Numbered from the stretch's first letter, positions 1-36,880 are shown. The stretch is 64,000 nucleotides of DNA from Candidatus Omnitrophota bacterium (GCA_028711115.1 JAQTSV010000001.1:1111005-1175004), one strand, 5' to 3'. Translations and numbers: made by a program. The notes: generated by a model from the sequence alone, not told the origin.

Positions 1-1401
1 TAACAACTCAAAAATATAATCAAGGATAGACATATTAATCCTGCATCTATCATTCGTTGGCGACCTAAGAAAAATATTGCCTTCTATAACATAATTATAA
101 AGAGGACATGTTCCACAGTAAGGTTTATAAACACAGTCGCTGCAGCTAGGAATTCCATCAAGACAAGAAGATAACGACAGAATTTTCACTATCTCATTGT
201 CAATAAATTCTTGATATTTATTTTTATTTACATTCCCCAACCTAAAAGTATCATCACCCATAACGGAAAACATCCTTCCTTCATCACAGGTATATACATC
301 ACCATTAAAATTATAAGCCAACTGGCCTGTTCCAGCTCCGCAAGGGGAACGTATCTCTAAATAATTAGGATCTCTATTAGTCAAAATCTTCTGTAGAAAT
401 ATCTTTGCTGTCCTTTCATAGAAATTATGTCCTTTAAAATTTAACACCATAATATAATCTAATGCTTCTTTATAAAAATCTAAAAAATCTTCTGCAGAAA
501 AACTGATTTTCTGTCGTGTTTTTTCTCTTATTCCAAACGGATTAACTGGCCTTAGGTGGATTCCGTCTAAACCCAAAGCAACAAACTCATCAATAATTTC
601 TCTGGGATAGGACAGGGAGTATTTGGTGATTGTAGTAAGGGCATTGAGTCTATATTTATACGTCTTGTGTTTTTTAACTTCTCCCCTTATCCTTTTAATC
701 CATTTAATAGTGTTTTTATAACTATTATTATTTGTACTCAATACAATCCGATTCTTATTATGTAATATCTCCGGTCCATCTAACGATGTGCAGAAGCTAA
801 CGTTATTCTTGATTAAAAATGTTAAGATCTTCTTGTTCATATAGGTCAAATTTGACACGAGGCTTATTAATAATTTCTTCTTTGCAGATTTGTTCTTTTT
901 ATTGGCGTACTCAACAATGAATTTAATCGTATCAAAATTTACCAAAGGTTCTCCGCCTTGAAATTCTATAGTTATATTAGAATTTGGAGATTCAAAAATT
1001 CTATCAACGACCTTTTCAGCTGTCCGGCTATCCATATCGTATTGGGTTGAATCTAAGTCTTTGGCACCACTTTGACAATATATACACTTATGGTCACATC
1101 GAAGAGTAACTACAACAATATGTAAAGACGGACCGCTTCCTAAGAACATATTGCGAGAAGCGTATTTACTGGTTAGACCATTAAAATCCAGTCTATCTCT
1201 AATAAAACCTTTATCTATAAGTTCGGAGTATTTATTAGGGGAACGATCTTCAATTTTGCCGATAAGAAATAAATCAAATTCAATTGGATCCAAGAAACAA
1301 TATCCACCCATATCATTGGTAAGCAGATACTCACCATTCAGTTTCTTGAATCTAAAAAAACCGACCTTTTCTTTATTAATATCTTTTAGCTCTAAAGGCA
1401 T
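1..1401 (-). CDS. Radical SAM/SPASM-domain maturase-like enzyme, 3' end truncated by the window edge. An ~100-aa N-terminal extension precedes the CxxxCxxC motif.
   Basis: Manual minus-strand translation from the ATG at 1401 gives MPLELKDINKEKVGFFRFKKLNGEYLLTNDMGGYCF...LGSGPSLHIVVVTLRCDHKCIYCQSGAKD... (C-x3-C-x2-C). The C-terminal part read from positions ~1-300 contains CLDGIPSCSDCVYKPYCGTCP, a SPASM/twitch-type Cys cluster. It is absent from the ORF track because it runs off the window. Confidence 0.8.
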   Translation of the reverse strand, partial: MPLELKDINKEKVGFFRFKKLNGEYLLTNDMGGYCFLDPIEFDLFLIGKIEDRSPNKYSELIDKGFIRDRLDFNGLTSKYASRNMFLGSGPSLHIVVVTLRCDHKCIYCQSGAKDLDSTQYDMDSRTAEKVVDRIFESPNSNITIEFQGGEPLVNFDTIKFIVEYANKKNKSAKKKLLISLVSNLTYMNKKILTFLIKNNVSFCTSLDGPEILHNKNRIVLSTNNNSYKNTIKWIKRIRGEVKKHKTYKYRLNALTTITKYSLSYPREIIDEFVALGLDGIHLRPVNPFGIREKTRQKISFSAEDFLDFYKEALDYIMVLNFKGHNFYERTAKIFLQKILTNRDPNYLEIRSPCGAGTGQLAYNFNGDVYTCDEGRMFSVMGDDTFRLGNVNKNKYQEFIDNEIVKILSLSSCLDGIPSCSDCVYKPYCGTCPLYNYVIEGNIFLRSPTNDRCRINMSILDYIFELL

Positions 1402-1581
1402 TTCTTTGTCAGTGCCAAAACATAATTGGAGAATTCACCGATAATAATATTATTAAAACCAGAAGAAACCTTATCAATCTTAACTTCTATGTAGCTATTT
1501 GTTTGTTTTAAGGAGAATCTGGCAAGATTGGAATAGGCTGAAACCGCATTCTGAATTGCTTTTTTTTTATAGATTTTTGTG

Positions 1582-1995
1582 TTAAACCTTACTTTTGGCA
1601 TTATTTTTCTTTACATTTCCGTATTTTTCTTCCCATGGGATAGCGATTCCCAAAGGATCTTTTAACGCGTCGCTATTAAAATCTTCACTAGAAATAGGCA
1701 AAGCAGAATAGATGGCCCGATTAACAATATATTCTCTTATCTTCTTATTGTTGGTTCCTATTTTATGCCTGAGGGAACAATACAGTAATTCATTTTCAAA
1801 ATCTCCCCTCAATTGCGCCTTTTTTCCGGCAGAAATCACTTGTTTGCTCTCCAGAGATACTCTTACTTTTTTCCCTTTACTATCGCTATCTAAAAATACA
1901 TATGCACGGTCAATAAATGCATAACAGGCATTTAATATGGCCTCCAGATTATAAATATCGCTATTTAAAACTATTTTGATAACGTTTTGACTCAT
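1582..1995 (-). CDS. Small hypothetical protein (137 aa) immediately upstream of the radical SAM/SPASM gene; possible accessory or substrate-related protein of that module.
   Basis: The 137-aa ORF has GGGAG about 10 nt upstream of its ATG. It sits in an operon-like position between the secreted Cys-rich protein and the radical SAM gene. No family recognised with certainty. Confidence 0.45.
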   Translation of the reverse strand: MSQNVIKIVLNSDIYNLEAILNACYAFIDRAYVFLDSDSKGKKVRVSLESKQVISAGKKAQLRGDFENELLYCSLRHKIGTNNKKIREYIVNRAIYSALPISSEDFNSDALKDPLGIAIPWEEKYGNVKKNNAKSKV

Positions 1996-2028
1996 TATAA
2001 AATTCTCCCTGGGATTCTACTGAATCTA

Positions 2029-3462
2029 TTAATCGCACACACCATCTTTGTTTTGATCGTTACATGCACGGCAGCATATAAAATAACGTGTGCCATCAAT
2101 CGGAGGGCTTATAGTCTCTGCCCCACCGCCACAATAACAATCATCGTCATATATCCCAGCCTCGCCAACTGACCCAGCTGCAAGATAATAATCTGCGGGA
2201 CACTCCTGAGTTCCGCTACTATCAGTATATGTGATTCTTACGCATGTATTACTAGAACCCCGTACATCCAATCTTGCTGTCGGATTCGTCGTGCCGATAC
2301 CGACGTAGCCGCCTGGTTTTATAACAAAATACGGTGATGTAAATGAAGAATCAGTTCCTGTGCCAGCACCAATTGCAAATGTACTTGAGTTGTAAACAGT
2401 TCCGATAGACCAAGGATACGCTCCTTGACGAATAATATTGATATATTGCCCACTGGCCTGAGGCTTAGTAATAACAAGATTGCCATTATATGCGTTATCT
2501 GCGTTTGTGCCGCTTGGATGAATTGTTATTCTGCCTATAGTATCTAGGGCTTGGGTTGGCGCTGATGTGCCGATACCAACATTACCCGCTGCATCAATAG
2601 CCATAGCATCACGAACGGAACTTGCACTTCTTTGCCTGAATATGATTGGCTCACTAAGATCATCACCCGTCTCGATTATAAGTACTCCGTTATTGCCCGG
2701 ATTAGTGTTGCCTTCGCTATAAATCTTCCAATAATCATTACTTGCCATTACGGCATAGATTGAGAAATTGCCATTGTTGGCGCTGGTCTGGAGTTGAAGA
2801 TTAGCTAACGTTGGACTTGTTGTCCCTATACCCACATTGCCTGCAGCATTAATAACAAGCCTCTCTAGCGAATTAGTCCCCAATGATACGTATGGAGAAT
2901 CTGCCCCTGAAACAGCAGGGTCACCTTCTCCGAGTTCTAAAAATGCTCTTCCGTTTGTAGGACTAACAGTTGTACCATCTACATCATACTGCAATCTATA
3001 AGCAGTGCCTGTCCAAGGCCAAGTCGAATACTTTGACTTTCTTCGATAAAGATATATTAAAAGACGAAGGTTGTTGTTGCCTCCCGATACGGCAAGATTC
3101 TGTATTTCAAAGGGATAGGCAGCGCTTCCGATGGTATCAGTCACATTAGAATAACCTATAATCGCGGCTCCGGTAGCAATACTTGTATAACTCCTAGCGT
3201 CATTCACAGTAAGCCGGGTAACCGGAGCACTAGTTCCAATGCCAACATTATCACTGACAAGAAGCGTTCCATTGGTTAAAGTAGCGCTCCTATAGTAGCT
3301 TCCTACGGCCATCTGGTCTACTCTTAATTCTTTATAGATTCCATACGGGGCGGGATAATAAGTGGTGAGGGTGATTTTTTCTTCGGCAAAAGAATAAAGG
3401 ATAGAAAATAAAACAGCGACTAAAACAAAAGCTGCTAATAGATTTGCCTTTTGTCTCATCAT
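2029..3462 (-). CDS. Secreted or membrane-anchored repeat protein with GNVGIGT(S/T)xPT tail-fibre-like repeats and a C-terminal tail carrying 10 Cys in ~70 aa.
   Basis: N-terminal hydrophobic segment MMRQKANLLAAFVLVAVLFSILYSFA. Four copies of the (A)AGNVGIGT(T/S)(A/S)PT motif. C-terminus CVRITYTDSSGTQECPADYY...DDDCYCGGG...YFICCRACNDQNKDGVCD. Confidence 0.6.
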   Translation of the reverse strand: MMRQKANLLAAFVLVAVLFSILYSFAEEKITLTTYYPAPYGIYKELRVDQMAVGSYYRSATLTNGTLLVSDNVGIGTSAPVTRLTVNDARSYTSIATGAAIIGYSNVTDTIGSAAYPFEIQNLAVSGGNNNLRLLIYLYRRKSKYSTWPWTGTAYRLQYDVDGTTVSPTNGRAFLELGEGDPAVSGADSPYVSLGTNSLERLVINAAGNVGIGTTSPTLANLQLQTSANNGNFSIYAVMASNDYWKIYSEGNTNPGNNGVLIIETGDDLSEPIIFRQRSASSVRDAMAIDAAGNVGIGTSAPTQALDTIGRITIHPSGTNADNAYNGNLVITKPQASGQYINIIRQGAYPWSIGTVYNSSTFAIGAGTGTDSSFTSPYFVIKPGGYVGIGTTNPTARLDVRGSSNTCVRITYTDSSGTQECPADYYLAAGSVGEAGIYDDDCYCGGGAETISPPIDGTRYFICCRACNDQNKDGVCD

Positions 3463-3463
3463 C

Positions 3464-4723
3464 TTATTTAGTTAATCTGGCGGCTAAAATTGAATTTTTA
3501 ATTTTGTTTATGTTTACCTTCATTAACTTATTATTTAGATTAACATTATTTTTTGCTTCAGTCAATAGGTAATTTTGTGAATAACCACGCCAGAAACCAT
3601 TCTTTTTCTCTTCAAACAGGACTTGTAATTGGCGGTTTAAAAAACGCCTTTTAAACTTAAGGCCTAACTTATCGCTAAGCGCCTTTAGCAAGATAAATCT
3701 CTGCTTAAGAACCTGTTCAGGAATATTATTCTTGAAATTTACCAGCGGTGTGTTGTCTCTGGGGTCGAATGGAAAAATATGCACACGACTAGGCAAAACT
3801 TTTTTCAGGAAATCCAATGTATTTAAAAACCTTTTCTCATCTTCGTCGGGAAAACCAATCATAATATCTGTGGTGATAGCCATATTTTTTATGTTCTTTC
3901 TTAACTTTGCCGCGAGCTTTAGATAATCCTGCCTCCTGTCTTTCCTGTTCATAAGTTTTAAGATTTCATTGTCACCGCTTTGAAAAGGAATATGCAGGTG
4001 CGGGCAGAGTTTTTGAGAAGTTTTCATTTTTTTGATGAGCCTGTCGGTCACATCTTTTGCCTCAATGGAACTTAAACGTATGCGCAGAACGCCTTTTATC
4101 TTTTCAATCTCTCCGATTAAATCCGTTAAGTCTATCTTCTGCTCCAAATCCCTGCCGTAATCACCCAGACAAATTCCTGTCAAAACTATTTCTTTGTAAC
4201 CTTTATCGCTCAGTCTTTTTATTTCGTTGATAATCGAAACAGGATTCCTGCTTCTGGAACGCCCCCGCACATAAGGCACTTTGCAGAAACTGCAGAAATT
4301 ATTACAGCCGTCCTGAATCTTGACAAAAGCCCTGGTGCGGCCTTGGAAATCACTTATCTCTTGAATAGCGGAAACATTATCTTTTCCGTCGGGAAAAAGA
4401 AATTCTACAATTCTATTCTTATCGTCATTGTTTAAAATTATATCTGCGCTGCCAATTCTTTCAATATCATCTGCATTTGAATGCGCATAGCAACCGGTCA
4501 CTACAACTTTAGCCAAAGGGTTTTCTCTTTTTGCCACTCTCATCAAATATCGAGACTGCCTGTCAGCGCTGCTGGTAACTGTACATGTGTTAATAATATA
4601 GAAGTTGGCTTTCTGGCCATTACCTAATTCCTTAAGACCTTTCCGCCTTAGCTGTTCCCGAATCAGCTGCGAATCATACTGATTAACTTTACAACCTAAA
4701 GTGTAGATTTTGAATGTCTGCAT
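3464..4723 (-). CDS. MiaB-family radical SAM tRNA methylthiotransferase (MtaB/MiaB-like).
   Basis: N-terminal MTTase domain (KIYTLGCKVNQYDS...INTCTVT) followed by a radical SAM core (GCNNFCSFCKVPYVRG). 419 aa. Confidence 0.85.
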   Translation of the reverse strand: MQTFKIYTLGCKVNQYDSQLIREQLRRKGLKELGNGQKANFYIINTCTVTSSADRQSRYLMRVAKRENPLAKVVVTGCYAHSNADDIERIGSADIILNNDDKNRIVEFLFPDGKDNVSAIQEISDFQGRTRAFVKIQDGCNNFCSFCKVPYVRGRSRSRNPVSIINEIKRLSDKGYKEIVLTGICLGDYGRDLEQKIDLTDLIGEIEKIKGVLRIRLSSIEAKDVTDRLIKKMKTSQKLCPHLHIPFQSGDNEILKLMNRKDRRQDYLKLAAKLRKNIKNMAITTDIMIGFPDEDEKRFLNTLDFLKKVLPSRVHIFPFDPRDNTPLVNFKNNIPEQVLKQRFILLKALSDKLGLKFKRRFLNRQLQVLFEEKKNGFWRGYSQNYLLTEAKNNVNLNNKLMKVNINKIKNSILAARLTK

Positions 4724-5476: not shown

Positions 5477-6982
5477 TTATCCCTCGGAGAAAACAAAAGC
5501 CTGAAATGTATAAATCTGGGTTTTGGAATCTTTATAGGCGTCTGGCGCAAGGCCTGCCTTCTGCCAGCAAAGCTGACTTAGAAAAGTCTCCAGATCCCAC
5601 TTTGTCTCGGTGGCCACCTGGGGCAAGAAAACCCCGCTGGAAAAACCTCTTTTTACGATTACGCCGTCTGTGCCCAATCTAATCTTTCGCCAGTCGTCGA
5701 TTAATTGCGGTTCAGTCAATACAGAAATCTCAATCTTAATGTGGCTTAATTCATCTTTGGTCACAGGGCCAAACCGGGGATCGCCGGTAGCTGATTCTAT
5801 GGCCATCTGGGAAATAACCTTATAAATCGGCTCTCTCGACGTAAAAGTGCCGATACAACCCCTCAAATCCCCGTCTTTGTGCAGTGTGACGAATGCGCCC
5901 CGCTGTAAATTTAATTGCGGATCTTCTTCATTAAAACTCGGGGTTTTGCCTGTAACAACATATTCAGTTATGGTCTGGCGCGCAATTTCTAATAATCTTT
6001 TTTTCTGAGTTTCGTTAAACATCTGCTCTTCTCCTTTTGAAACCGGACTATTTTTGCCAGAGTTATTTTTATCTGCTTCGGATAAATCGCTGCTCTCTTT
6101 AAAAAATATGATGCTGGCGTAACCCACGACTCCTGATTTATCGCCCGTGACATCTCCTGAATTAGCGTAATCCAGGGCCTGCGCTTTCAGCCCTAATTCT
6201 TTAGCATAATTTAATAAAACCGAAACCGGTGCCAAACCGCATGCTTCGCATTCTCTTTTTAAATTTGACTGCCAGAACCCAAAGGCATCCAGATTTTTCA
6301 TATAAGAAATCGCCTTTGCGTCCATTTCCTGCGCCTCTGAATAAGGATGATAATGAGATAAATCCGTACTCGCCACGAGCAAAACCTTCTTACCTTTAGT
6401 TATATCGACGAGAATTCTGGCGACTTTGGCATAATCGCTGTAATCTAACTGACCAAAAACCATTGGCACAATTTTAAAGCCGGCTAATGATTTCTGCAAA
6501 AATGGTAATTCCACTTCTACGGCGTGTTCTCTTTCAAATGCCTCGGGTATAAATTTGATTTTATCGCTTGAAGAAATCAGCGCCTTGGTTAATTCGCTGT
6601 CAACTTCAACATCGCCTAAAGGCGTACGGAAAAATCCTTCATCATAAACAGAAATGCCTTTTAAGGCATAGAAATGCGACGGCGCAAGAATAATTACCGT
6701 ATCAAAACTTCTGCCTTTTATGGCGTCAAAACTGTAGGCGGCAACCTGGCCGGAATATGCGTATCCTGCGTGCGGGGAAATTACAGCAAGAATATCTTTG
6801 TCTTTTACATCTTGATTCTGCCTGACATTGGCAAAGAAATTGTCAATTTGGCTGGAGAGCACATCTTTATCGGCAGGATAAAATTGTCCGCTGACATTAG
6901 GATATTTTATCTTACCTTCGGCAAAAATAATACCGCAGAATAAAACAAAACAGATAAAACCCGATAAAAATATCTTCTTCAT
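5477..6982 (-). CDS. Fusion of a Memo-like protein (AmmeMemoRadiSam system protein B family) and an AMMECR1 domain (protein A family), with an N-terminal signal peptide.
   Basis: Signal-like N-terminus MKKIFLSGFICFVLFCGIIFA. Memo motif VISPHAGYAYSG. C-terminal AMMECR1 motif LRGCIGTF. Confidence 0.75.
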   Translation of the reverse strand: MKKIFLSGFICFVLFCGIIFAEGKIKYPNVSGQFYPADKDVLSSQIDNFFANVRQNQDVKDKDILAVISPHAGYAYSGQVAAYSFDAIKGRSFDTVIILAPSHFYALKGISVYDEGFFRTPLGDVEVDSELTKALISSSDKIKFIPEAFEREHAVEVELPFLQKSLAGFKIVPMVFGQLDYSDYAKVARILVDITKGKKVLLVASTDLSHYHPYSEAQEMDAKAISYMKNLDAFGFWQSNLKRECEACGLAPVSVLLNYAKELGLKAQALDYANSGDVTGDKSGVVGYASIIFFKESSDLSEADKNNSGKNSPVSKGEEQMFNETQKKRLLEIARQTITEYVVTGKTPSFNEEDPQLNLQRGAFVTLHKDGDLRGCIGTFTSREPIYKVISQMAIESATGDPRFGPVTKDELSHIKIEISVLTEPQLIDDWRKIRLGTDGVIVKRGFSSGVFLPQVATETKWDLETFLSQLCWQKAGLAPDAYKDSKTQIYTFQAFVFSEG

Positions 6983-6996
6983 ATTTATAATTAAAG

Positions 6997-7068
6997 TGGA
7001 GTCACCGGGAATTGAACCCGGACCTCATCCTTGCGAAGGATGTGTTGTCCCATTTCAACTATGACCCC
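6997..7068 (-). tRNA. tRNA-Ala, anticodon CGC.
   Basis: Reverse complement folds as a cloverleaf: GGGGTCA/TGACTCC acceptor stem with a G3:U70 wobble pair (the Ala identity element), anticodon loop TTCGCAA, T-arm CCGGGTTCAATTCCCGG, discriminator A. CCA is not encoded. Confidence 0.8.
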
Positions 7069-7173: not shown

Positions 7174-7758
7174 TTATCGTCCGGAGGTCATGCGGGAAAA
7201 AAATGTGGTGGTTAAATTCACAGCGGGGTTGTCAAACAAGGATTCAGTTTTCGTAGGGTCTTTTCTTGTCCGTATGGTAACAGTTAAAGCTGTATTATTA
7301 TATGCAGCCGGGGCAACAACATTAAAATAAGTAATACCGTTGGCTATTGTTTCATTACTTGAAGTAAAATTATCGGAAGAATAATAGATTGAGCCATATG
7401 TCCCTCCCGGCCATCTATAGGCATGCCATTGATCTGGCGCAGAAACAGTTCCGCTATTATCATAATCAACCCTAATTACTACCCTTTGGTTACTTTCCTG
7501 TATATAAAGGCTGTTATTATATAGGCCGCCGATTTGATTCTCGAAATCATTTCTAATTCGGTTTATTACCGGTATCAATTCACCCAATAATTTCGTCTGG
7601 GCTGTTGGTTTTGTCTGCATTCTGCGCATTGCCATCTCCAGAGTAATGCCTGTGAGCGCAACCACGCTAAATAACAAAATTGCTATCATAAGCTCCATAA
7701 GGGTAAATCCGGCCAAAAATCTATTATGCTTATACATTATTTCTTGTCTGTTGTGCAT
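7174..7758 (-). CDS. Minor pilin/pseudopilin with a prepilin-type N-terminal cleavage/methylation domain (PilW/GspJ-like).
   Basis: RFLAG|FTLMELMIAILLF class III signal with Glu at +5. Confidence 0.7.
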   Translation of the reverse strand: MHNRQEIMYKHNRFLAGFTLMELMIAILLFSVVALTGITLEMAMRRMQTKPTAQTKLLGELIPVINRIRNDFENQIGGLYNNSLYIQESNQRVVIRVDYDNSGTVSAPDQWHAYRWPGGTYGSIYYSSDNFTSSNETIANGITYFNVVAPAAYNNTALTVTIRTRKDPTKTESLFDNPAVNLTTTFFSRMTSGR

Positions 7759-7776
7759 CGTTTGTTAAACTAAATA

Positions 7777-8223
7777 TTATAGCGTAGGTTCGGTCCAATC
7801 TACTTCTACTTCGGCCTTACGATATTCGTAGCCGCCTCCGGGGTCTGTTATTCTATAACGCCACTTGCCGTTATATTTGGTGGCAAATTCGGTTGTACCA
7901 AAGGTGCTGTAAATATTCAAAAAATTATTTGCATAATCCATATCATACCAGGCACTCCATGCGCCATTAGCCGCTATCGGCGAAGTAGCACAATACCATT
8001 CATCTGCGCGTAAGTACGCCCTGAAATTCTCCAAAACAGTCTGTGCCACTTCATCAGCAAAATGCCTTCTCTGTGCACGCTGGATTATTTTGCTCGAAGA
8101 CAAAGTAATGCTGAACATCCCCGCGCCAATAAGTGCCAAAAGCACGGCGGAAACTATTATTTCTACTAATGTCAACCCTGCCTTCTGCTTTAATTTGTTA
8201 ATCGAATGCATCTTTCCTGACAA
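7777..8223 (-). CDS. Minor pilin/pseudopilin (PilV/GspI-like).
   Basis: KQKAG|LTLVEIIVSAVLLALIG prepilin-type N-terminus. Confidence 0.7.
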   Translation of the reverse strand: MSGKMHSINKLKQKAGLTLVEIIVSAVLLALIGAGMFSITLSSSKIIQRAQRRHFADEVAQTVLENFRAYLRADEWYCATSPIAANGAWSAWYDMDYANNFLNIYSTFGTTEFATKYNGKWRYRITDPGGGYEYRKAEVEVDWTEPTL

Positions 8224-27877: not shown

Positions 27878-29473
27878 TCATGAAGAAAGTAATTTTTCAA
27901 AGATAAAGAATCTCATATAAGGATCCGAAGGAGCGATGTTCTGAGATACATATCCATCGAAAATATAACGATAATGCTCCTTAAGATAACTAAACAGTTC
28001 TTCTGACCCCTTATAATTAAAAAGAAAATATATAAAATAATAATGTTTTTCGATTCTTTTTTTCAATTCCTCTGATGAAATAATATAATAACAATTGCGA
28101 TCCGAATAATATTTCATAACCGAAATATTCCAATAGTTAGAAAATATAGGTTCGTCTTTTGCTAAAGTTGATCCTACTTGAGACATAATCTTACTATAAA
28201 TAAAAGAATGCATCTTTTGTGTCTTATTATATTGCGTCAAAGGCAAATCAGATTTAGAAATATTTAAACACAGCAAGATTATTATGCTTATAGCTATAAT
28301 AATCACACCGAAAAACTGAACATTTTTAGCATGAATTTTTCTTATTAACGATATCAATGCATAGAATATTAAAGTAGATAGCAATACGCTCGCCAATAAC
28401 ATATGGGTAGCTGTCTGAATATGAATCATGGCGTGAGAAGGAAATATAATCCACCAGCTTAAACCGCAGAGAAAGAATATCGATAACAGCTTAATTCCGT
28501 TTATTATGTTGATCGATGCTTCATCTTTTAATCTATTTTTTATTAAGAAAATTGGAATAATTAAGAACAAGGGGATCAATTTAAGGTTGGCACCGTTGAT
28601 GAATTTAATATTTCTTATAAAACACATATGCAACCAAGATTTAAAAGTTGGAGCCATATTCCCTAATTCATAACTATTATTGATTCTTTGCTTAGCAGCA
28701 ATAAATAAATCCTTAAATGCCGCGTTAATACTCCCTAATGCGACAGCGTTTTGTAAAAAATGTGCCAGAAAACCAATAAAGACTACAGATGCTATCATAA
28801 TCCAATATTTCCAAGCTAGTTCTTTCTTAAAAAACAAAACGAATAATAACATAAAAAGGTAAATATAGATTATATATTCAAAGCTATTTAGCGTATTTAA
28901 AAGACACAGCAATAACAAAACAGCAAATAGGATTTTCCTTCTATTCTCTAAAAACAACACAAAACAAAATAAAATTGATACCCTGAATAATTCCATATAG
29001 CTGAATTGATGTATTGAATCGGCGCTTAAAATAAAGACAGGGTTTGTAATAAAAAATAATAATCCCACAAAAGAAATAAAATAACTGCCGGGGAATACTT
29101 TTCGCAATAACAAAAACCAGAACCAGCAAGTAAACATAGAGATCAATAAAGAAACCAGCCTGAAAATAACGAGCTGGCCTGAAGGAAAGATTCTTAGAAT
29201 AACTCCGGCGATGATATTAGGAAGCGGCGGATAGTGTGTATAAAATTCACCGGGTTTTTCTATTTGTGGATTAAAGATAGGCAAGAATTTACAGTTGAGA
29301 AATCCAAATTTAACGAAATTTTTGGCAGAAATTAAACTCTCTGCATCCGCACAATTCAGCCAATGGTCTAAAAATGGATAAATAATTCTAAAAGATCCAA
29401 AGAAAGAAAAAAAGAGAAAAATTATAATTAAAGCTAAAACCGAATCATTTCTTATTTTCTTATTTAAAACCAT
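27878..29473 (-). CDS. Polytopic membrane protein, possibly a GT-C-fold glycosyltransferase (ArnT/PMT/TfpW-like).
   Basis: More than 10 predicted TM helices. A periplasmic loop with acidic residues sits near TM1. It is adjacent to a GT9 gene and a UbiA-type prenyl-phosphate pentose synthase. Family not confirmed. Confidence 0.35.
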   Translation of the reverse strand: MVLNKKIRNDSVLALIIIFLFFSFFGSFRIIYPFLDHWLNCADAESLISAKNFVKFGFLNCKFLPIFNPQIEKPGEFYTHYPPLPNIIAGVILRIFPSGQLVIFRLVSLLISMFTCWFWFLLLRKVFPGSYFISFVGLLFFITNPVFILSADSIHQFSYMELFRVSILFCFVLFLENRRKILFAVLLLLCLLNTLNSFEYIIYIYLFMLLFVLFFKKELAWKYWIMIASVVFIGFLAHFLQNAVALGSINAAFKDLFIAAKQRINNSYELGNMAPTFKSWLHMCFIRNIKFINGANLKLIPLFLIIPIFLIKNRLKDEASINIINGIKLLSIFFLCGLSWWIIFPSHAMIHIQTATHMLLASVLLSTLIFYALISLIRKIHAKNVQFFGVIIIAISIIILLCLNISKSDLPLTQYNKTQKMHSFIYSKIMSQVGSTLAKDEPIFSNYWNISVMKYYSDRNCYYIISSEELKKRIEKHYYFIYFLFNYKGSEELFSYLKEHYRYIFDGYVSQNIAPSDPYMRFFIFEKLLSS

Positions 29474-29508
29474 CGTGAACTTTGGGCTGACTTTTGTTTA
29501 AACTCTAA

Positions 29509-30804
29509 TTATATCCTACTTTGCTCGGGTAGTAAGTTTCTATGGCTGATATCGGAAATTGCATGTTTTTCTTTTTCATAAAAATAATCCATAGTAGATA
29601 TATCTGCGGTGGGTTTAATCGATAATATTTCACATATCTTTTTATATACTTCCTTGGGCGATATTGATTTCATGCAGATGTTATTCCCTCGACAGGGAGG
29701 AAAATCTGTTCTGTAAATACAAGGGCTGCAATAAACTTCCCTGGAATGAAAAATTATATTCCTATCGCTAGCAAAATCCGCATAATGCAAAGGATTACCG
29801 GGACCCCACAGAGAAACTACATTAATATCCAAACCTACAGCAATATGATATAAACCAGAATCATTTGTAACCATTAATTTGGCATTACTGATAAGCTCCA
29901 TGACAGCTTCAAAAGAAAACTTGCCAGCTGAGTTAAATGTAATCTTCTTTGCTTGATCAGAAAGTTTGCCGTATAGAGCATTGGTATAAGAATATTCTTC
30001 GGGGCTACCTATTATAAATATAGGGTTTTGCCAATCTTTCGCTAAGGCGTTAATCAACAAAACAAAATAATCCATAGGCCAACGCCTCTCCAATAACAAA
30101 TCAGAAGCGTTAGGATTGACGACAATATAAACATTAGCATCTTGGACGCCATTGGATATTAACCAATTTTTGACCTCCTGTTTATCTTGCTCTTGTAATT
30201 TTATTTTCTCAATTTTATAACCTATATCTTTATCATCTATGCCGCAAACTCTGGCAAGCTGAAGATAGATCCTGCTAATATGTTGATAGTCGTTAAACCA
30301 GACCAGATGCGTATTAAGTCCTATTCTAAATCTAGTGGATTCTTTATAAAAACCATACCTATTTCTTGCAAGGCTTAAAGTTGTCAAAATAGTAGAAAAC
30401 GCTGAATAAACTTCTAAATCAAAGTATAAATCGATTTTTAATTTCCATAATTTAATAATCAAACGAACCGTATCGAACAAAATGTTAAAAAATGAAGAAT
30501 CTCTGATATAAAGATAATTGTCAAAGAGTGAAATCCTTTCAACTAATGGTTTATTTTTAAGAGTGGTAATAAGTATATATTTTGCTGATGGGTATTTCTG
30601 TCTTAAGGCTCTGACCATCGGGGTGGCTCTTAGGATGCTGCCCATTCCTAAAAGCTTTGCTATAGCTATTGTTTTAACCTTATTCGGTGAATCATCGTGA
30701 TCTATTTTAAGAATTTTCCCCAACGGACACACAATAGAATTTAATAAAAATGCTAATGGCCTTCCTATAATTCTATCGAGAATGATTTTATCTCGTGATT
30801 TCAT
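29509..30804 (-). CDS. Glycosyltransferase family 9 (heptosyltransferase-like).
   Basis: C-terminal LMVTNDSGLYHIAVGLDINVVSLWGPGNP matches the GT9 DSGxMHLA...GPT motif. Confidence 0.7.
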   Translation of the reverse strand: MKSRDKIILDRIIGRPLAFLLNSIVCPLGKILKIDHDDSPNKVKTIAIAKLLGMGSILRATPMVRALRQKYPSAKYILITTLKNKPLVERISLFDNYLYIRDSSFFNILFDTVRLIIKLWKLKIDLYFDLEVYSAFSTILTTLSLARNRYGFYKESTRFRIGLNTHLVWFNDYQHISRIYLQLARVCGIDDKDIGYKIEKIKLQEQDKQEVKNWLISNGVQDANVYIVVNPNASDLLLERRWPMDYFVLLINALAKDWQNPIFIIGSPEEYSYTNALYGKLSDQAKKITFNSAGKFSFEAVMELISNAKLMVTNDSGLYHIAVGLDINVVSLWGPGNPLHYADFASDRNIIFHSREVYCSPCIYRTDFPPCRGNNICMKSISPKEVYKKICEILSIKPTADISTMDYFYEKEKHAISDISHRNLLPEQSRI

Positions 30805-30861
30805 AAGTAATTTTTCTTACTGATAGAACAATTTGAACGAAACTGGCCAGCGCCGTTTAAA

Positions 30862-31941
30862 TCAATAGCTCAAAAATAATTTTCCCCAATCAGTTTTCAG
30901 GATATTTCTTACCCTTTTTCTGCCGATAAAATTATACCAGAACCAATCGTGGTAAATAATCGAAGCCAAATATGACCAAGGGGTAATCACAGTCCTGAGC
31001 AATAAATGTTCCAATGGTTTAAGCCGACCCCAGTAAATCATCTTCTGTCCCCTGCTGGCAAACGTATTTTGGTTGGCCTGGAAATGAAAATTCACATCTT
31101 TGATATCTTCTCCTACAATTTCGATTTTCTTTAAATCTCCACATCCTAATCCTAATTCATGGGCAAGACGGATAAATTTCAAACTCATGGGCTCAAAACC
31201 CATCATCTTTGCCGCTATAGCATCAATAGCGACCTGGTCATTACTTGCCAAGATATAATTCTTTACATGCGGAATCATACATCTAGGCCCCGGGCCGTCA
31301 CCGGCAAAGGTTCCATCCATAACCGCAAAAATTCCTGAATGAATCTCTTTCTGAATAATCAAAAGATCAACTAATGTTTCATTAATCACAGAATGTGTAT
31401 AATGCCGTTTTTCATGCAGCAATCCTCCGAAAGAATTCTTCATCGCCCCAGTCATGGTGGTAAAGACATGAGTCTTCATCGTGGGAAGATGAATAATATT
31501 ATGGCCAATAAAGCGTTTTGGTATGTAAATACCTTCGGGGAATATCTTATCCAAAACCAAAAGCTTTGTCTTTGGTTTAAACCTAACCCACTCCTCGCCT
31601 TCATAGAGATGGATATTTCTAATGCCATATTTATTGACGACATTTATATGCTTGTTAGTTCTTTCGCCTTTTTTAGCACTGACTACAACCGTACGATTAT
31701 GGCAGGCATAAATAGAATTTTTCTCATAACCATCTTCGAGTAAAGTTTTTAATACGCCTTCTAATTGCCAGGGGGTCGAGGAACAGGCAGGATAAAAATA
31801 ATGCCAGGAAATGTTTATCTTTAAAGCTGTCTGTCTGTCTTTGGGAAGGAATTTATCATAATCAATTGATTTTAAGAGCCTTGAGTAGTCCTCTAATACT
31901 GTTTGGGGATTAGTCTTAAGTACTGCTACCTTTGAAATCAC
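30862..31941 (-). CDS. DUF362-family protein.
   Basis: N-terminus KVAVLKTNPQTV and overall length are consistent with DUF362. Uncertain. Confidence 0.45.
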   Translation of the reverse strand: MISKVAVLKTNPQTVLEDYSRLLKSIDYDKFLPKDRQTALKINISWHYFYPACSSTPWQLEGVLKTLLEDGYEKNSIYACHNRTVVVSAKKGERTNKHINVVNKYGIRNIHLYEGEEWVRFKPKTKLLVLDKIFPEGIYIPKRFIGHNIIHLPTMKTHVFTTMTGAMKNSFGGLLHEKRHYTHSVINETLVDLLIIQKEIHSGIFAVMDGTFAGDGPGPRCMIPHVKNYILASNDQVAIDAIAAKMMGFEPMSLKFIRLAHELGLGCGDLKKIEIVGEDIKDVNFHFQANQNTFASRGQKMIYWGRLKPLEHLLLRTVITPWSYLASIIYHDWFWYNFIGRKRVRNILKTDWGKLFLSY

Positions 31942-31968
31942 AACGTTTTCCTTTTACCTAACAAATTA

Positions 31969-32862
31969 TCAGTAAAGGATAACAAACACTGACAATATGT
32001 AAAGTACGATATTCAAAATGAGGGCCTTATCAGTCAATAATAAAAGCTCTGGTTCATCGCCTGCCTGGCGTTTATAAACAAGATAGAGATACCTTAACAC
32101 ACCATACAATACAAAAGGAATTGTATAAATGAGATTTGCGGTATGAAATTTAGCTATTGTTTCATGCGATAATGTATACAGGGCGTAAGAAATAACCGTA
32201 GCGGAACTGACAAGAGAAATCGCCTGATCCAGGAATCTTGAGCTGTATTCCTTTAGAACAGGACGCACATTATGATGATTTATGGTAAGAAGCAACTCGC
32301 TTCTTCTCTTGCTTAACGCCAGGAATAAAGAAATAAGCATTGTGCAGAGAATAAACCAGGAGGAAACCGCAACATCTATTGCCACAGCTCCGGCAATTAA
32401 CCTCAATACAAAACCTACAGCAATACAAAAGACGTCAATAATAACAATATGTTTTAAAGAAACCGAATATAAAATTTGAATTGCGGCATATAAAAGGCAA
32501 ACCAAGAAAAATACCGTATTTATCTTTAATGCCACTATTAAACTTGCGACCATTAATAAAAAGGCGAACAGAAAAGCTGTCTTGGGATTGAGTTTTCCTG
32601 AAGCTATGGGACGGCCGGATTTCTTGGGGCTTAATTTATCAAACTCTCTATCCAATAAGTCATTAAAAATATAAATGGCACCGGAAATAAAACAAAATAT
32701 ACAAAAAGCGATTAGCGATAACAAAAATCTTGGGCCGACCAAGAGATTTTTTGAAAATATTAATGCGACAAAGACTATTAAATTCTTTGTCCACTGAGGA
32801 GGCCGTAAACTAATAAAAATCGCAACAAGAGTTTTCATTAATTTTCTATTTTGGTTTTCCAT
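31969..32862 (-). CDS. UbiA-family prenyltransferase, decaprenyl/polyprenyl-phosphate 5-phosphoribosyltransferase-like (DPPR synthase).
   Basis: Integral membrane protein carrying the NDLLDREFD motif (NDxxDxxxD) in the first cytoplasmic loop. Confidence 0.7.
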   Translation of the reverse strand: MENQNRKLMKTLVAIFISLRPPQWTKNLIVFVALIFSKNLLVGPRFLLSLIAFCIFCFISGAIYIFNDLLDREFDKLSPKKSGRPIASGKLNPKTAFLFAFLLMVASLIVALKINTVFFLVCLLYAAIQILYSVSLKHIVIIDVFCIAVGFVLRLIAGAVAIDVAVSSWFILCTMLISLFLALSKRRSELLLTINHHNVRPVLKEYSSRFLDQAISLVSSATVISYALYTLSHETIAKFHTANLIYTIPFVLYGVLRYLYLVYKRQAGDEPELLLLTDKALILNIVLYILSVFVILY

Positions 32863-34013
32863 AAAATTTTTCTTTTAATAATTAAAAGTTTCCTGCCAAA
32901 ACTAATGTTAGCAACGCTAATAAGAAGTTTTTTAAAAACATTGAATATCTGAAAAATGCCAAATAAAATTATCCCGGATAAATTAGTTTTGAATAATCTA
33001 AATTGGTAGAGATTAATTAATTTATTCGGCCAGATCATCTTATATTCTTCCGTTCCTCTCAGCAAATCAAAATATCTTAATCTTTCTGAAAAAGATTTAT
33101 TGATTAAATATTTCAACATAATTTTTCCGGGAGAAAAAATTGAATACTCAGGATTAAATGTAGGCGTATAGTAATAAAACTGCTTATTGTAAATATAGCC
33201 GAAATGGAAAGCAATCGGGATAGCGTTAAGTTTCAAATAAGAAAAATCAAGTAAGTTCTTGTTAGTCAGCACCTCCAAAAGCCTTGAATATCTTTCTATT
33301 GATTGTGAATCGCTAAATTGACTTCTTTGAAACACCGCACCCCATCTCTTTTCATGCGACTTAACAAAAGAAGATAGAATTTCTATGCCCTCATTATATG
33401 TCTTTACTCTATCAAAAATAAGATTTCCAAGTTTATTAAGGCGATTTTCCTGCCTGTTTATATCAGACCTATATTTTTTATCCATTTTACCGAAATAATC
33501 AAACCAATCGCTATATTCCTCCAAATTAATAACAACGGACGAATCAACGGCTTTTATGCTACCCGAGAGCGCCTTATATTCTTTGACATATTTCTGGAAT
33601 AGTCTAAAATTAGAAGAATCTCCTCTTATGTAAAATAGATCTATGCAATCCCATTTTTCACGACAATCTAAAATCTGCTCAAAAATTATTTTAAAACATG
33701 CATCACTGTTCTTAGTAATAATAAAATCTAAATAATCCGAAACACCGTGAGCGATAAACTTAAGGCTTTTTAATGAAAGGATAGGCATAATTTTACGTTT
33801 CTCTACCGTGAGCGGCGCAATAGCAATTAATTCTTCGCTATCCCATACTAAAATAATAAACAACTCATGGCCGTCACCGCAAAATTCCCACCAAATCGAA
33901 AGCCACTCATGTCTTAAAAAGAATACATTATTATTGCTTCTATTTAAAACTTCATTCCAAATTTGTTCTAACTTCTTGAATTCATTGTAATCAGTTATAA
34001 TTTGAACTCTCAT
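32838..34013 (-). CDS. FemAB-like/GNAT-fold acetyltransferase (Acetyltransf_6, CelD-like).
   Basis: Length and a C-terminal GNAT-like region; common in glycan loci. Confidence 0.5.
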   Translation of the reverse strand: MRVQIITDYNEFKKLEQIWNEVLNRSNNNVFFLRHEWLSIWWEFCGDGHELFIILVWDSEELIAIAPLTVEKRKIMPILSLKSLKFIAHGVSDYLDFIITKNSDACFKIIFEQILDCREKWDCIDLFYIRGDSSNFRLFQKYVKEYKALSGSIKAVDSSVVINLEEYSDWFDYFGKMDKKYRSDINRQENRLNKLGNLIFDRVKTYNEGIEILSSFVKSHEKRWGAVFQRSQFSDSQSIERYSRLLEVLTNKNLLDFSYLKLNAIPIAFHFGYIYNKQFYYYTPTFNPEYSIFSPGKIMLKYLINKSFSERLRYFDLLRGTEEYKMIWPNKLINLYQFRLFKTNLSGIILFGIFQIFNVFKKLLISVANISFGRKLLIIKRKILWKTKIEN

Positions 34014-34040
34014 TTAAAAATTGTCCTTATAAACTTTTAA

Positions 34041-35045
34041 TTATAATGAACTTAATGGCAGACAAACAATATTTCGATACATCGAAAGAAATCTCTCCTG
34101 TGACGACAAAACTTCCTCTGGCAAGGCAGGCCAGGCAAAACTTTTTATTCCCGTATTGTAATATAAGTTTCTAATAAACAGTTCTCGCTCTTTTACTTTT
34201 AAAGGGAAAACCCAAGGGACAACACCTTCTCCTAAATGCTTAAAAATCGGCTCAGCCTCACCAGAATTCAGAAACATCTCCAAGAAAACCTCATAGGCTT
34301 TTCTTTTCTTAATTATAAACTTTTCATAATCGATATGCCTCATAATGAGCCTGGATAAATTAGAATAGCCGATAAGGTATTTGGCTAAATTCTTTTCTTC
34401 TTCAGCTGATTCTTCTTTATATATTTTAGCTTTTTTATTTAGCATTCTTAAAAACTTAGGCATAAAATAAGATGATAAATCATTGATTTTAGTGAAAATA
34501 AATTTTGTTGAATATTTAAAATCCTCTATAACGGGATTATTGCAAGGAACATATAAACAATCATTAAGATTAGATTTCTTATTCACCACTAAAGCTGCTC
34601 CGTTTGGGATTGGCAATGTTTTCCTGAAACTAAATATTGAGATATCTCCAAATGTTCCTAAGTCTGTTGAACTATTTTTACTTAAAAAACCATGGGCATT
34701 ATCTTCAATAAAGCTTATTTTGGAATTCCTGCATATATCCAGAATTCCATCTATTTGCTGTGGAAAACCAAAATAGTTAACGGCAAGAATTCCTTTTGTC
34801 TTTTCATCCAGCAAGTCTTTTATTTGTTGAGTGTTAGGAATTAAATTGTCATCTATATTATAGTATTTGACTTTGATCCCCAAATAATTGAAAGGAGCCA
34901 GAACAACGTTACAGATATAAGCAGGGATAAGAATATTGTCTCCCTCCTTGATTCCTAATATTCTCAAGCCCTCTAATAAAGCTGTCCGGGCATAGCCAAA
35001 ATAATGTATTTTATCTTGATCCAAAGGAAAAGGTAATTTTTTCAT
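34041..35045 (-). CDS. DegT/DnrJ/EryC1/StrS-family PLP-dependent sugar aminotransferase-like protein.
   Basis: GILAVNYFGF...DNAHGF...SIFSFRKTLPIPNGAALV (SFxxxK-like lysine region). Shorter than typical members. Confidence 0.5.
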   Translation of the reverse strand: MKKLPFPLDQDKIHYFGYARTALLEGLRILGIKEGDNILIPAYICNVVLAPFNYLGIKVKYYNIDDNLIPNTQQIKDLLDEKTKGILAVNYFGFPQQIDGILDICRNSKISFIEDNAHGFLSKNSSTDLGTFGDISIFSFRKTLPIPNGAALVVNKKSNLNDCLYVPCNNPVIEDFKYSTKFIFTKINDLSSYFMPKFLRMLNKKAKIYKEESAEEEKNLAKYLIGYSNLSRLIMRHIDYEKFIIKKRKAYEVFLEMFLNSGEAEPIFKHLGEGVVPWVFPLKVKERELFIRNLYYNTGIKSFAWPALPEEVLSSQERFLSMYRNIVCLPLSSL

Positions 35046-35998
35046 TTCGCTATCAATTGTTTGGTTAAATTAACACAGCGTATTAATTTAGGATAAAAAT
35101 TTGTCAATTTTACTTTGAAAATAAATAAATTTTTATATCCGGAGATATGTATTCTTCCTAGCTTGAATGGATTTTTAATTTCGATTGATTCTTCTATGCT
35201 TGAGAAAGCAGCTTCAAAACCTAAATCACGCATAATTTTTACATGAATAGGCAAAAAATCATTTTCCCCTCCATAGGGATAAGCAAAAATCTTGACTCTT
35301 TCGCCTAATTTATCCTCTATAATTTCTTTTGACTCTTTTATTTCCAATAATGCATTTTCATAATCTAACCTTGCGAGATTTACATGATTTACGGTATGCG
35401 CCCCAAAAGATATGCCAAAATTCTGCATTTCTTTTACTTCCTCCCAATTCATCGCTGAACGTTCTAATTTATAATTATCTACTCCCAAAATAAATTTTAA
35501 TTCATTTAAAAACGTATCGGGATTTGTTTTTGGTTGTTTCATATATTCATCAAACAACCCATATGCCTTAATCCTATCGGTTTCTGTTTTTAGGCAGATT
35601 TTTCTACTCTTCCCATTTAGCCTTAAAGTAATTTCTTTCCTATCTGTTTGTCTCAACCAAGTTTTAATCTTATCCCACCAAAAGACTTTGTCTGTACCGA
35701 TATATCCTGTAGCAAGAAAAACAATAGCCGGAAGATTATATTTCTTAAGAATTGGAAAAGCATAGTTATAACAATCAACCGACCCATCGTCAAAAGTTAG
35801 AAGAATCGATCTAGGCTCTAATTTTCGAGAATTATTTAAATAAAACAAAAAATCCTTAATAGATAAAATATTGTAATGTTTGCTTAAAAAGGATAATTGT
35901 TTTTCGAAAATTTCAACACTAACTGTATTGGCTTTATCAAAATATTTACTACCCTCTTTTAAGTTAGGCAGAATCCTGTGATAAGTAAGAGTTGTCAT
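35042..35998 (-). CDS. Polysaccharide deacetylase (NodB homology domain).
   Basis: ILLTFDDGSVDCY motif plus His-containing motifs. Confidence 0.75.
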   Translation of the reverse strand: MTTLTYHRILPNLKEGSKYFDKANTVSVEIFEKQLSFLSKHYNILSIKDFLFYLNNSRKLEPRSILLTFDDGSVDCYNYAFPILKKYNLPAIVFLATGYIGTDKVFWWDKIKTWLRQTDRKEITLRLNGKSRKICLKTETDRIKAYGLFDEYMKQPKTNPDTFLNELKFILGVDNYKLERSAMNWEEVKEMQNFGISFGAHTVNHVNLARLDYENALLEIKESKEIIEDKLGERVKIFAYPYGGENDFLPIHVKIMRDLGFEAAFSSIEESIEIKNPFKLGRIHISGYKNLFIFKVKLTNFYPKLIRCVNLTKQLIAK

Positions 35999-36880
35999 TT
36001 AATTATCACCAAACAATAGAGAAAAAATACAAGAAATATTCTTTATGGAATAATAAAGTGCTTTCTTGATATCCCCTCTGCGGATAAAGTGTATAGTTAT
36101 AGAAAAATTGATCTTTGATATTCTCAAACTAATTAGGTAAAAATCCAATATTCTTTTTTCTTTGTATTCCTTAAAATTTTGTTTAACAACTTCTACCTCA
36201 TGATTCGCTTGCCTCTCTATATCTAAACTCATATTTTTGCCGTGAATGATATATTCACCTAATATTTCAGGAATAAAATAAAATTTATATTCTTTAGAAA
36301 GCCTAAGCCATAAATCATAATCTTCAACTGAAAAGAACTCAGGATTTTCTCTGAACATACCAACATCCACCAAAACATCTTTCTTAACAACTGTTGCAGA
36401 AGGTGAAAGACAATTACCTTTAAATAATAGCCTTCTAAACATTCCGGTTTCATAAGGTCCATAAAATAAATTTCTAATAATTCTTCCTGAAATATCCTTC
36501 ATGATTTCATTATGACAGATTAAATCTTTATCTGGATTTTTCATAATAATTTCATAACATTTTTTTAGTTTTTCAGAATACCAAATATCATCTGCGTCAA
36601 GAAAAGCAACATATTTTCCTTTTGCATGCTTAATCCCGGTATTTCTAGCAATCGCCAATCGACTATTGTTTTGATAATAATATTTGATTCTTACATCTTG
36701 AAAACTGTTAACAATTTCCCTTGTATTATCGGTAGAGCCATCGTCGATAATAATTACTTCGTAATTATCAAATTCTTGCCTTAATACTGATTCCAACGCT
36801 TTTTTAAGCAGCCACCCTTGATTATATGCTGGGATAATTATTGAAAATACTGGCTGAGCATTATTGTCATTGATTGTCAT
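35999..36880 (-). CDS. Glycosyltransferase family 2.
   Basis: FSIIIPAYNQ...VIIIDDGSTDNT and DAD motifs. Confidence 0.8.
   Translation of the reverse strand: MTINDNNAQPVFSIIIPAYNQGWLLKKALESVLRQEFDNYEVIIIDDGSTDNTREIVNSFQDVRIKYYYQNNSRLAIARNTGIKHAKGKYVAFLDADDIWYSEKLKKCYEIIMKNPDKDLICHNEIMKDISGRIIRNLFYGPYETGMFRRLLFKGNCLSPSATVVKKDVLVDVGMFRENPEFFSVEDYDLWLRLSKEYKFYFIPEILGEYIIHGKNMSLDIERQANHEVEVVKQNFKEYKEKRILDFYLISLRISKINFSITIHFIRRGDIKKALYYSIKNISCIFSLLFGDN

Follow-up and report, generated by a model that had tools for sequence, protein, structure and literature searches.

A 64,000-nucleotide stretch of DNA from a Candidatus Omnitrophota bacterium (GCA_028711115.1, JAQTSV010000001.1:1111005-1175004; hereafter the window) begins with a radical S-adenosylmethionine (rSAM) enzyme of the SPASM type that stands next to a secreted, fibre-like protein with a cysteine-dense C-terminal tail. 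The locus raises the question of what the enzyme modifies and what the fibre does beside it. A preliminary description of the DNA proposed that the tail is itself cross-linked by the enzyme, in a protein-scale counterpart of the peptides that are made on ribosomes and modified after translation (RiPPs), and this interpretation is partly supported. The protein families encoded in window 1-3462 identify this segment as the 5′ end of an Omnitrophota operon for radical-SAM protein maturation, a variant of the His-Xaa-Ser (Hxs) type, with all genes on the minus strand. The link between the Cys-tipped fibre and this operon is real and previously unannotated.

Four genes make up this part of the operon, and three of them belong to Hxs families. 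The hxsB gene (1..1401, minus strand, as for all features of this segment) encodes 467 of the 485 residues of a radical SAM/SPASM maturase, the C-terminal 18 residues of which fall beyond the window start. It matches the NCBIfam equivalog model for HxsB, TIGR03978, with 510.6 bits for the part in the window and 522.3 bits at full length, against a cutoff of 370. Upstream, in the same orientation, lie open reading frames (ORFs) of 69, 137 and 477 residues, all of which the preliminary description had listed. The 69-residue ORF (1392..1601) overlaps the start of hxsB by 10 nucleotides (nt) and hxsD by 20 nt; it matches the HxsD-like family NF038315 with 71.7 bits (cutoff 41), and an identical protein carries the NCBI name 'HxsD-like protein' (P0132). 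The 137-residue ORF (1582..1995) is assigned to hxsD by TIGR03976 (66.7 bits, cutoff 50) and by a precomputed match to PF27806 HxsD. The 477-residue fibre gene (2029..3462) is placed with the operon by its linkage to Hxs loci and by its third-position GC content (GC3); it ends 33 nt before hxsD, and a single nucleotide separates its start from the mtaB stop codon (mtaB, 3464-4723). Homology identifies HxsB, HxsD and the HxsD-like protein as cytoplasmic maturation proteins. The enzyme set is of a known kind: NCBI models exist for HxsD-like, HxsA3/4 and HxsC4, and variants are known to curators.

Is the fibre a part of this operon? The answer requires a closer look at the protein, which matches no Pfam or NCBIfam family. 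By inspection of the translation, residues 1–26 (3385..3462) resemble a signal peptide, MMRQKANLLAAFVLVAVLFSILYSFA followed by EE, after which comes the Omnitrophota motif EEKITLTTYYPAPYGIYKELR. The signal peptide and this motif are common to many Omnitrophota proteins with other C-terminal domains, such as C1q. The shared N-terminus, 'signal peptide + AEE(K/R)ITLTTYYPAPYG.Y.ELR', is followed by unrelated C-termini, C1q-like or with various Cys-containing ends (P0034, P0055, P0068-P0075; L021 7069-8879), and some of these proteins occur in tandem. This N-terminus has the look of a module, specific to the lineage, that exports or anchors exchangeable tips. The CPR (Candidate Phyla Radiation, Patescibacteria) versions of the tip protein have a membrane-anchor N-terminus instead. 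The stalk (2245..3384) has the tail-fibre-like character that had been noticed from the start, with four VGIGT repeats at residues 73, 210, 295 and 387. In PHROG it matches tail fiber families (phrog_9942 at E 2.4e-15, phrog_18345 at E 7.7e-13), and a profile of the fibre matches the Bdellovibrio MAT fibre 8ond in the PDB (E 5.2e-7) on the (G)NVGIGTxxP repeat only. The stalk family is very large, with 680 matches, most of them without the tip; homologues bear S74, C1q and other tips. Bdellovibrio MAT fibres are surface trimers with exchangeable C-terminal binding tips (PMC10769870). The Omnitrophota protein shares with MAT and phage tail fibres (8ond, 8ol4, 8ojn) an N-terminal export or anchor segment, the (G)NVGIGTxxP stalk and an exchangeable C-terminal tip, but the likeness is limited to the repeat motif, and the tip has neither a fold match in the PDB nor an S74 chaperone domain. 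The protein thus described would be exported and would probably assemble as a trimer, its signal peptide being a prediction of the same kind. To our knowledge, no MAT fibre has been reported beside radical SAM genes.

The Cys-tip domain (residues 407–477; 2032..2244) was delimited from three alignments (A3, A5, A9). All eight cysteines of the fibre lie within it, at positions 407, 421, 442, 444, 463, 464, 467 and 476, a clustering that under uniform placement has a probability of (71/477)^8, about 2e-7. The ten cysteines first counted in the last 70 residues are in fact seven, or eight in the last 71. C407, C421, C463 and C464 form the core, C467 and C476 are subfamily-specific, and C442 and C444 are unique to the window protein. 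The consensus reads N-x-C-x4-[YF] ... G-T-x2-C-P-x-G-[YF] ... G-x-[FLM]-x-C-C, in which four Cys and one Gly are invariant and the Pro is near-invariant; conserved Thr, Ser and Asn residues lie near the invariant Cys. In the subfamily to which the window protein belongs, C-x-D ... D-G-x-C brings in two further Cys; the C-terminus of the CPR members reads LCCKVSNPI. HMMER, run exhaustively over 1.84 billion representative proteins, returned 57 members at E <= 1e-3, one likely false positive included. The domain is always at the extreme C-terminus of its carriers, which range from 92 to 855 residues, and the named members are "hypothetical proteins" of Colwellbacteria. It is the sole element common to all Hxs-linked versions of the protein in Omnitrophota and CPR. 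The tail has 4, 6 or 8 Cys in 37-38 of 40 members, the extra ones coming in pairs, and in many CPR members every Cys of the protein sits in the tip. Pfam and NCBIfam hold no family for the domain. An AlphaFold2 model from 40 sequences (mean predicted local distance difference test score, pLDDT, 71.8; moderate confidence, modelled as a monomer) has a small three-strand sheet, and its Cys sit where strand 1 begins, in the loop after it and where strand 3 ends; a model from a 13-sequence tail alignment reached a pLDDT of 52 and was unusable. Foldseek found nothing with E < 1 for the tip model in the PDB.

The tip gene occurs with the genes for HxsD, HxsD-like and HxsB in 13 of 13 non-redundant loci from Omnitrophota and Patescibacteria, which were reached from three kinds of seed. 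First: HxsB. In 185,579 species genomes that were scanned, four loci of the variant type turned up (L005-L008), two from Omnitrophota, one labelled "Planctomycetia" and one from Parcubacteria, and all four have a tip gene. It is immediately upstream of hxsD in three of them and 6.3 kb upstream in L006, with cluster genes between. Second: HxsD-like. Two divergent members of this family, which has at least 163 clusters at 90% identity, were picked for their long contigs before the context was inspected; both loci (L023/24 and L025/26) have tip genes directly 5′ of hxsD, as a tandem pair in L023. Third: the tip itself. All seven tip seeds with visible downstream sequence (L003, L004, L014, L015, L016/17, L019, L020) are followed by hxs genes. 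Three of the 120 listed fibre homologues share the Cys tail, each directly 5′ of hxsD, hxsD-like and hxsB (L003, L004, L020). A tail profile added nine more short proteins of 94–171 residues, and those with downstream sequence are followed by hxsD (L015, L016/17, L019). The sole metagenome match to a tail pattern from a five-sequence alignment, L014, is followed by hxsD and hxsB. The contexts of L018 and L021 end at contig edges. The preliminary description had made its proposal depend on the conservation of the gene pair, and the Cys-tail gene and the enzyme do stand together in every related locus examined. Five proteobacterial loci of the canonical D-B-C-A order (L009-L013) have no tip gene and no BLAST-detectable copy of HxsD-like, which is present in all variant loci.

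Such an association could also arise if the fibre gene hitch-hikes with the hxs genes, through a shared promoter or inheritance as a block, and the tip is an ordinary adhesin domain with no functional link to them. The genes of the region are all co-directional and tightly packed, mtaB is likewise immediately upstream in four loci of the same lineage (L001, L003, L004, L007), as lineage inheritance would have it, and the stalk comes from a large, mobile family of fibre modules of which most lack the tip. However, mtaB does not survive a change of lineage and the tip gene–hxsD junction does. The gap between the two genes is 14-50 nt in 11 of the 13 loci, while the gap on the other side reaches 492 nt and the upstream neighbour is mtaB, rSAM and electron-transfer flavoprotein genes, a type IV secretion system pilin with a small ORF, a fibre paralogue or a 153-residue ORF. 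With at least five upstream contexts in two phyla, the junction is kept and the neighbour is not, which indicates that the conserved unit begins with the tail gene. The rarity of the tip points the same way, and hxsD follows wherever the DNA downstream of a tip gene is in view. Homologues without the tip are not found beside hxs genes: 117 of the 120 listed homologues lack it, and a control from the metagenome of L003 (L022), a member of the N-terminal family without the tip, lies between the genes for trigger factor and clpP. The GC3 of the fibre gene (0.326) is close to that of hxsD, hxsD-like and hxsB (0.30-0.33) and sets it apart from mtaB (0.402) and from mtaB, rsmE and memo together (0.38-0.42). 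Hitch-hiking is therefore disfavoured, and we consider it very improbable.

Bulk GC (0.43 versus 0.33) would assign the fibre gene to the upstream core block. This assignment was rejected because the excess is at second codon positions (GC2 0.50) and reflects the amino-acid content of a protein rich in Gly, Ala and Thr. No terminator-like site lies between the fibre gene and hxsD, in a promoter and terminator scan that overall gave no more sites than shuffled sequence; the two genes are probably co-transcribed. We are highly confident that the 477-residue protein is a genuine, conserved member of the operon. The literature searched has no description of a fibre with this tip as an Hxs component, Pfam and NCBIfam have no model for one, and the proteins are annotated "hypothetical protein"; on rSAM enzymes or RiPPs of Omnitrophota nothing specific was found in the literature.

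What, then, does the enzyme act on? HxsB has the layout first ascribed to it. An N-terminal extension of 101 residues (1099..1401), previously put at about 100 and covered by the family model from residue 15, precedes the CxxxCxxC radical SAM cluster motif CDHKCIYC (residues 102–109; 1075..1098; Pfam Radical_SAM 45.8 bits). The putative SPASM-type auxiliary-cluster motif CSDCVYKPYCGTCP occupies residues 420–433 (103..144); Pfam SPASM scores 20.5 bits, just below its cutoff of 21.5, and the whole protein matches the SPASM-type equivalog. Variant HxsB sequences form one clade that includes the window HxsB, with a mutual identity of 44-88% and an identity to canonical HxsB of only 24-38%; none was found in the viral contigs searched. 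The next-best family matches are PapB (E 1.7e-39), the SCIFF maturase (E 3.4e-31), the anaerobic sulfatase maturase anSME (E 4e-31) and QhpD (E 4.4e-24). As assignments they were rejected on their cutoffs: 136 bits versus 340 for PapB, 108.6 versus 425 for the SCIFF/CteB maturase, 108 versus 349 for anSME, 85 versus 453 for QhpD and, in addition, 78 versus 720 for RumMC. No cutoff of a thioether-forming family was reached among those tested (PapB, SCIFF/CteB, RumMC, StsB), and every other peptide-maturase family in NCBIfam, CcpM included, is far under its cutoff. The model assignment thus confirms the proposed membership in a group of peptide- and protein-modifying enzymes that includes the Hxs type, and not in a family of cofactor biosynthesis, which would have spoken against the proposal. 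PADLOC, in a 2023 version without Hxs models, returned generic viperin-like rSAM similarity for the locus.

Among solved structures, CteB, the SCIFF thioether maturase (5wgg; phmmer, E 1.4e-19), is nearest in sequence, followed by anSME (4k36/4k37, E ~4e-12). The CteB alignment takes in the radical SAM core and the SPASM domain as well as some of the N-terminal region that resembles a RiPP recognition element (RRE); because it begins at HxsB residue 32 (chain residue 24), it reaches the region where CteB has its RRE-like domain. The RRE that had been suggested for the extension is thus seen only weakly, by position in this alignment, and the Pfam models for PqqD/RRE have no match on HxsB. The extension appears to be positionally equivalent to the RRE-like domain of CteB and may serve as an RRE.

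The Hxs family was defined in silico in 2011. The canonical HXS system (HxsD-HxsB-HxsC-HxsA) was shown in 2026 to protect Escherichia coli against phage by blocking DNA entry (Li et al., PMC13128918). There, HxsB, HxsC and HxsD mature an exported periplasmic HxS-repeat protein, with N-terminal processing and a mass gain of 8 Da (+8 Da) on SHRSS, and HxsC binds HxsD (PMC13128918). Canonical systems are 99.7% in Pseudomonadota and are arranged as HxsD-HxsB-HxsC-HxsA in 99.6%; the survey covers only HxsA-defined, almost exclusively proteobacterial systems (PMC13128918). Protein-scale modification, as first proposed for the window, is already the documented mode of the canonical system (PMC13128918).

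The family-defined substrate was out of sight of the preliminary description, since it lies outside the window, as do all genes after hxsB. The operon continues in contig JAQUPK010000001.1 of a Candidatus Omnitrophica metagenome-assembled genome (GCA_028716625.1; L001), which extends past the window start. Completing hxsB and its flank, as had been recommended, gave the order Cys-tipped fibre, HxsD, HxsD-like, HxsB, a 222-residue protein, HxsA4 and then rSAM genes. The HxsA4 precursor (L001 12750-13052) lies about 0.7 kb past the window start, has 100 residues and matches NF038313 with 58.9 bits (cutoff 55). It is laid out as a conserved leader, IK.FLLSEEGKI.KK, a signal-like hydrophobic segment ending in ASA, and a C-terminal run of H-x-S repeats, HTSHSSHGSHASHGSHGSHGSH / HTSHSSHGSHASHGSHGSHGSHCSGGVSKI in L001. 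By family assignment it is the predicted substrate of the system. The same leader is present in every variant HxsA examined, from Omnitrophota to CPR, and this conservation marks HxsA as the recognised substrate.

Beyond the leader, the variant HxsA precursors diverge strongly (L023 7678-9312; L016 13816-14151; L025 8831-9208). In the Roizmanbacteria-like precursor of L023, which has 544 residues, some 40 H-S-S/H-G-S repeats are joined by an additional domain at the C-terminus; in CPR precursors the repeats are H-S-S-C, with 12-15 Cys; and most HxsA4 of Omnitrophota end in GGWC or a similar Cys-containing tail.

The variant can now be set against the canonical system. The two share HxsB and HxsD that reach their equivalog cutoffs (NCBIfam families TIGR03976-03979), an exported H-x-S repeat precursor and, by analogy, rSAM maturation of an exported protein; hxsD and hxsB lead, and the canonical repeat protein comes after the rSAM genes. 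The variant differs in having no enzyme at the HxsC cutoff, an extra HxsD-like paralogue and many extra rSAM genes, and its gene order is not D-B-C-A. Its precursor is of the small HxsA4 type, with a long conserved leader and without a peptidoglycan-binding domain, a Cys-tipped fibre gene is always 5′ of hxsD, and the hosts are Omnitrophota and Patescibacteria. As in the HxsA4/HxsD-like variant of NCBIfam (NF038313, NF038315), HxsD-like is next to HxsB.

At least seven further radical SAM genes lie downstream of HxsA4 in L001 (13072-20414): a frameshifted rSAM/SPASM gene, two PapB-like rSAM/SPASM genes, three HxsC-like genes and a 777-residue double rSAM. The HxsC-like proteins are not true HxsC, with 93-113 bits versus 267.9, nor HxsC4, with 115-155 versus 500. 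The number and type of the extra rSAM genes vary between loci, and the minimal CPR operon has one extra gene, two rSAMs in all, of which the second matches no Hxs family. The secreted, Cys-rich 222-residue protein between hxsB and hxsA4 (L001 12068-12736) has homologues of 222-261 residues at the same place (L003 13220-13954, L004 3831-4547, L005 11425-12210, L007 10517-11242), with 13-14 Cys in L005 and L007. None has a Pfam or NCBIfam family; the type is conserved in Omnitrophota-type loci and absent from CPR loci. L006 has instead a 174-residue protein with 14 Cys after hxsA, with a weak match to a heavy-metal-binding domain.

The reading that we prefer, at somewhat less than an even chance, makes HxsA4 the protein on which the enzymes act and the fibre a partner of the matured HxsA4, exported and stapled by disulfides. 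By analogy with canonical HXS, HxsA4 would be modified in the cytoplasm, processed and exported. The fibre would be exported too, probably as a trimer, with its small β-sheet tip stapled by disulfides between paired Cys and not cross-linked by the enzymes. Outside the cytoplasm it might work together with the matured His-rich product, for example as a cell-surface scaffold or receptor that holds it, and would so stand in for the peptidoglycan-binding domain of canonical HxsA, which HxsA4 lacks. The system as a whole could serve either phage defence, as canonical HXS does, or interaction with a host or prey in these ultra-small bacteria of attached or predatory habit. Five observations favour this reading of the fibre. 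First, the even, paired Cys counts of the tail favour ordinary disulfides over thioethers. Second, the AlphaFold2 model puts the Cys at the edges and in a loop of a small sheet, as described above. Third, the stalk is of the tail-fibre and MAT type, and such fibres have exchangeable binding tips, one of them with a disulfide. Fourth, the tip proteins have no leader of the HxsA type. Fifth, HxsA lacks Cys in systems, such as L011, where canonical HxsB is at work.

The alternative, which we think possible but doubtful, is the one first proposed: the Cys tip is itself the substrate, and HxsB, perhaps guided by HxsD-like, installs radical cross-links in it before export. These might be thioethers that run from the four invariant Cys to conserved Thr, Ser, Asn or Tyr in their vicinity, or the modification might be of another kind. 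The fibre tip would end up stapled and redox-inert, through a RiPP-like maturation on the scale of a protein, comparable to the action of QhpD on QhpC. QhpD is a SPASM rSAM enzyme that makes Cys-Asp/Glu thioethers in the small subunit QhpC before export. It supplies the precedent and the model for this alternative, as a SPASM enzyme that cross-links the Cys of a folded exported protein, but the tip has no similarity to QhpC, and inspection showed neither conserved acidic acceptors next to the core Cys (A9) nor a consistent Cys-X3-Asp/Glu motif. The enzyme anSME acts on Cys or Ser of Sec-exported proteins before their export; the 477-residue protein has no C/S-x-P/A-x-R motif, however, and no sulfatase is nearby. 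SCIFF precursors, the substrates of CteB, are cytoplasmic peptides of about 45 residues, unlike the secreted fibre.

The gene arrangement is where this alternative draws its strength, and several of the same points weigh against the partner role that we prefer. The tip gene keeps its strict co-occurrence and tight spacing with hxsD, hxsD-like and hxsB throughout the 13 loci. The variant adds exactly two parts to the canonical D-B-C-A set, the tip protein and a second HxsD paralogue, which fits one adaptor per substrate. Precursor genes of rSAM RiPPs usually lie directly 5′ of the maturase genes, and the tip gene is in this precursor-like position, duplicated in tandem in L023. The closest characterized relatives of HxsB (CteB, PapB, QhpD, anSME), which supply its next-best family and structure matches, are Cys-directed SPASM enzymes that all act on Cys. 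The confinement of all Cys to the tip in many CPR members also fits a modified tip, as does the absence of the tip from the phage genomes searched, and of the CPR-type tip from the viral contigs, although the stalk is tail-fibre-like. Anaerobic hosts, as these presumably are, also offer less favourable conditions for disulfides outside the cytoplasm. The HxsA of L023 has its own C-terminal domain and tip proteins are present nonetheless, which weakens the idea that the fibre replaces an anchor. The role of the fibre is itself one that we infer from sequence and context, and six of the loci were seeded independently of the tip; as the HxsD-like family is larger than the inspected set of tips, loci without a tip gene may exist.

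Against a modified tip stands, first of all, the leader-bearing HxsA precursor that is present in every locus as the homologous substrate, while inspection found neither an HxsA-type leader nor any other leader motif common to the tip proteins. Disulfides, and not thioethers, predict even Cys numbers with paired additions. HxsB is far under all cutoffs of thioether families, the motifs of the anSME and QhpD substrates are missing as described, and the modification of canonical HXS is reported on a His/Ser motif and not on Cys (PMC13128918). That HxsB and an HxsD-like adaptor cross-link the four-Cys tip in a non-reducible manner, possibly with the tip joined to the His-rich HxsA4 product, is accordingly a tentative proposal and in our judgement an unlikely one.

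Whichever substrate applies, the variant of Omnitrophota and CPR adds two parts that always occur together, HxsD-like and a secreted fibre whose four-Cys tip is rare and unannotated, and it ties radical SAM maturation to a fibre of the cell surface in bacteria that live attached to other cells. HxsA4 and the tip are, moreover, two concrete candidate substrates for a small set of candidate enzymes, which makes the question of HxsB more approachable; the minimal CPR operon, with its two rSAMs, is tractable for this purpose. If the tip were modified, the system would be a new kind of protein-scale RiPP-like maturation, with which ultra-small anaerobes (Omnitrophota, Patescibacteria) would give a full-length structural protein an adhesin or receptor tip that is redox-proof. 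With an unmodified tip, the fibre would nevertheless be a new and conserved partner of an Hxs system.

The rSAM/SPASM gene directly after HxsA4 (L001 13072-14153, about 1.1 kb past the window start) is broken by a -1 frameshift at a homopolymer. The same break is found in L003 (14236-15320), L005 (12520-13664) and L015, in tracts of A10 (L001) and T9 (L003, L005/L015); the site, of 9-10 nt, lies between the CxxxCxxC and GGEPL motifs. Three divergent loci, assembled independently, share the direction and relative position of the frameshift, which points to a phase-variable tract or to programmed slippage and not to a random pseudogene.

On the other side of the fibre gene, the window continues with mtaB, rsmE, a Memo-AMMECR1 fusion, a tRNA-Ala gene and pilin-like genes. 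The fusion (5477-6982, minus strand) is a single protein of 501 residues that joins AmmeMemoRadiSam system protein B (Memo) to protein A (AMMECR1), and its N-terminus is hydrophobic and signal-like (MKKIFLSGFICFVLFCGIIFAEG). Its position beside rsmE and mtaB is kept in L003 and L007, and an rSAM-like gene precedes it in L007. Directly upstream, the tRNA-Ala gene (anticodon CGC; 6996-7068, minus strand) is the only place in the 64-kb window with a tRNA or Rfam match. Pilin-like genes of the prepilin type (N_methyl) form a run at 7174-8223 (minus strand) and beyond. In L003 (1-6257), such a run is preceded by ATPase and platform genes of the type II secretion system/type IV pilus kind, upstream of the Memo-rsmE-mtaB block, and the arrangement of pilin genes and block is conserved synteny within this Omnitrophota lineage. 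Farther along, window 28001-48000 has a lower GC content (0.31-0.34, versus 0.37-0.42 in the first 28 kb) and a locally positive AT skew.

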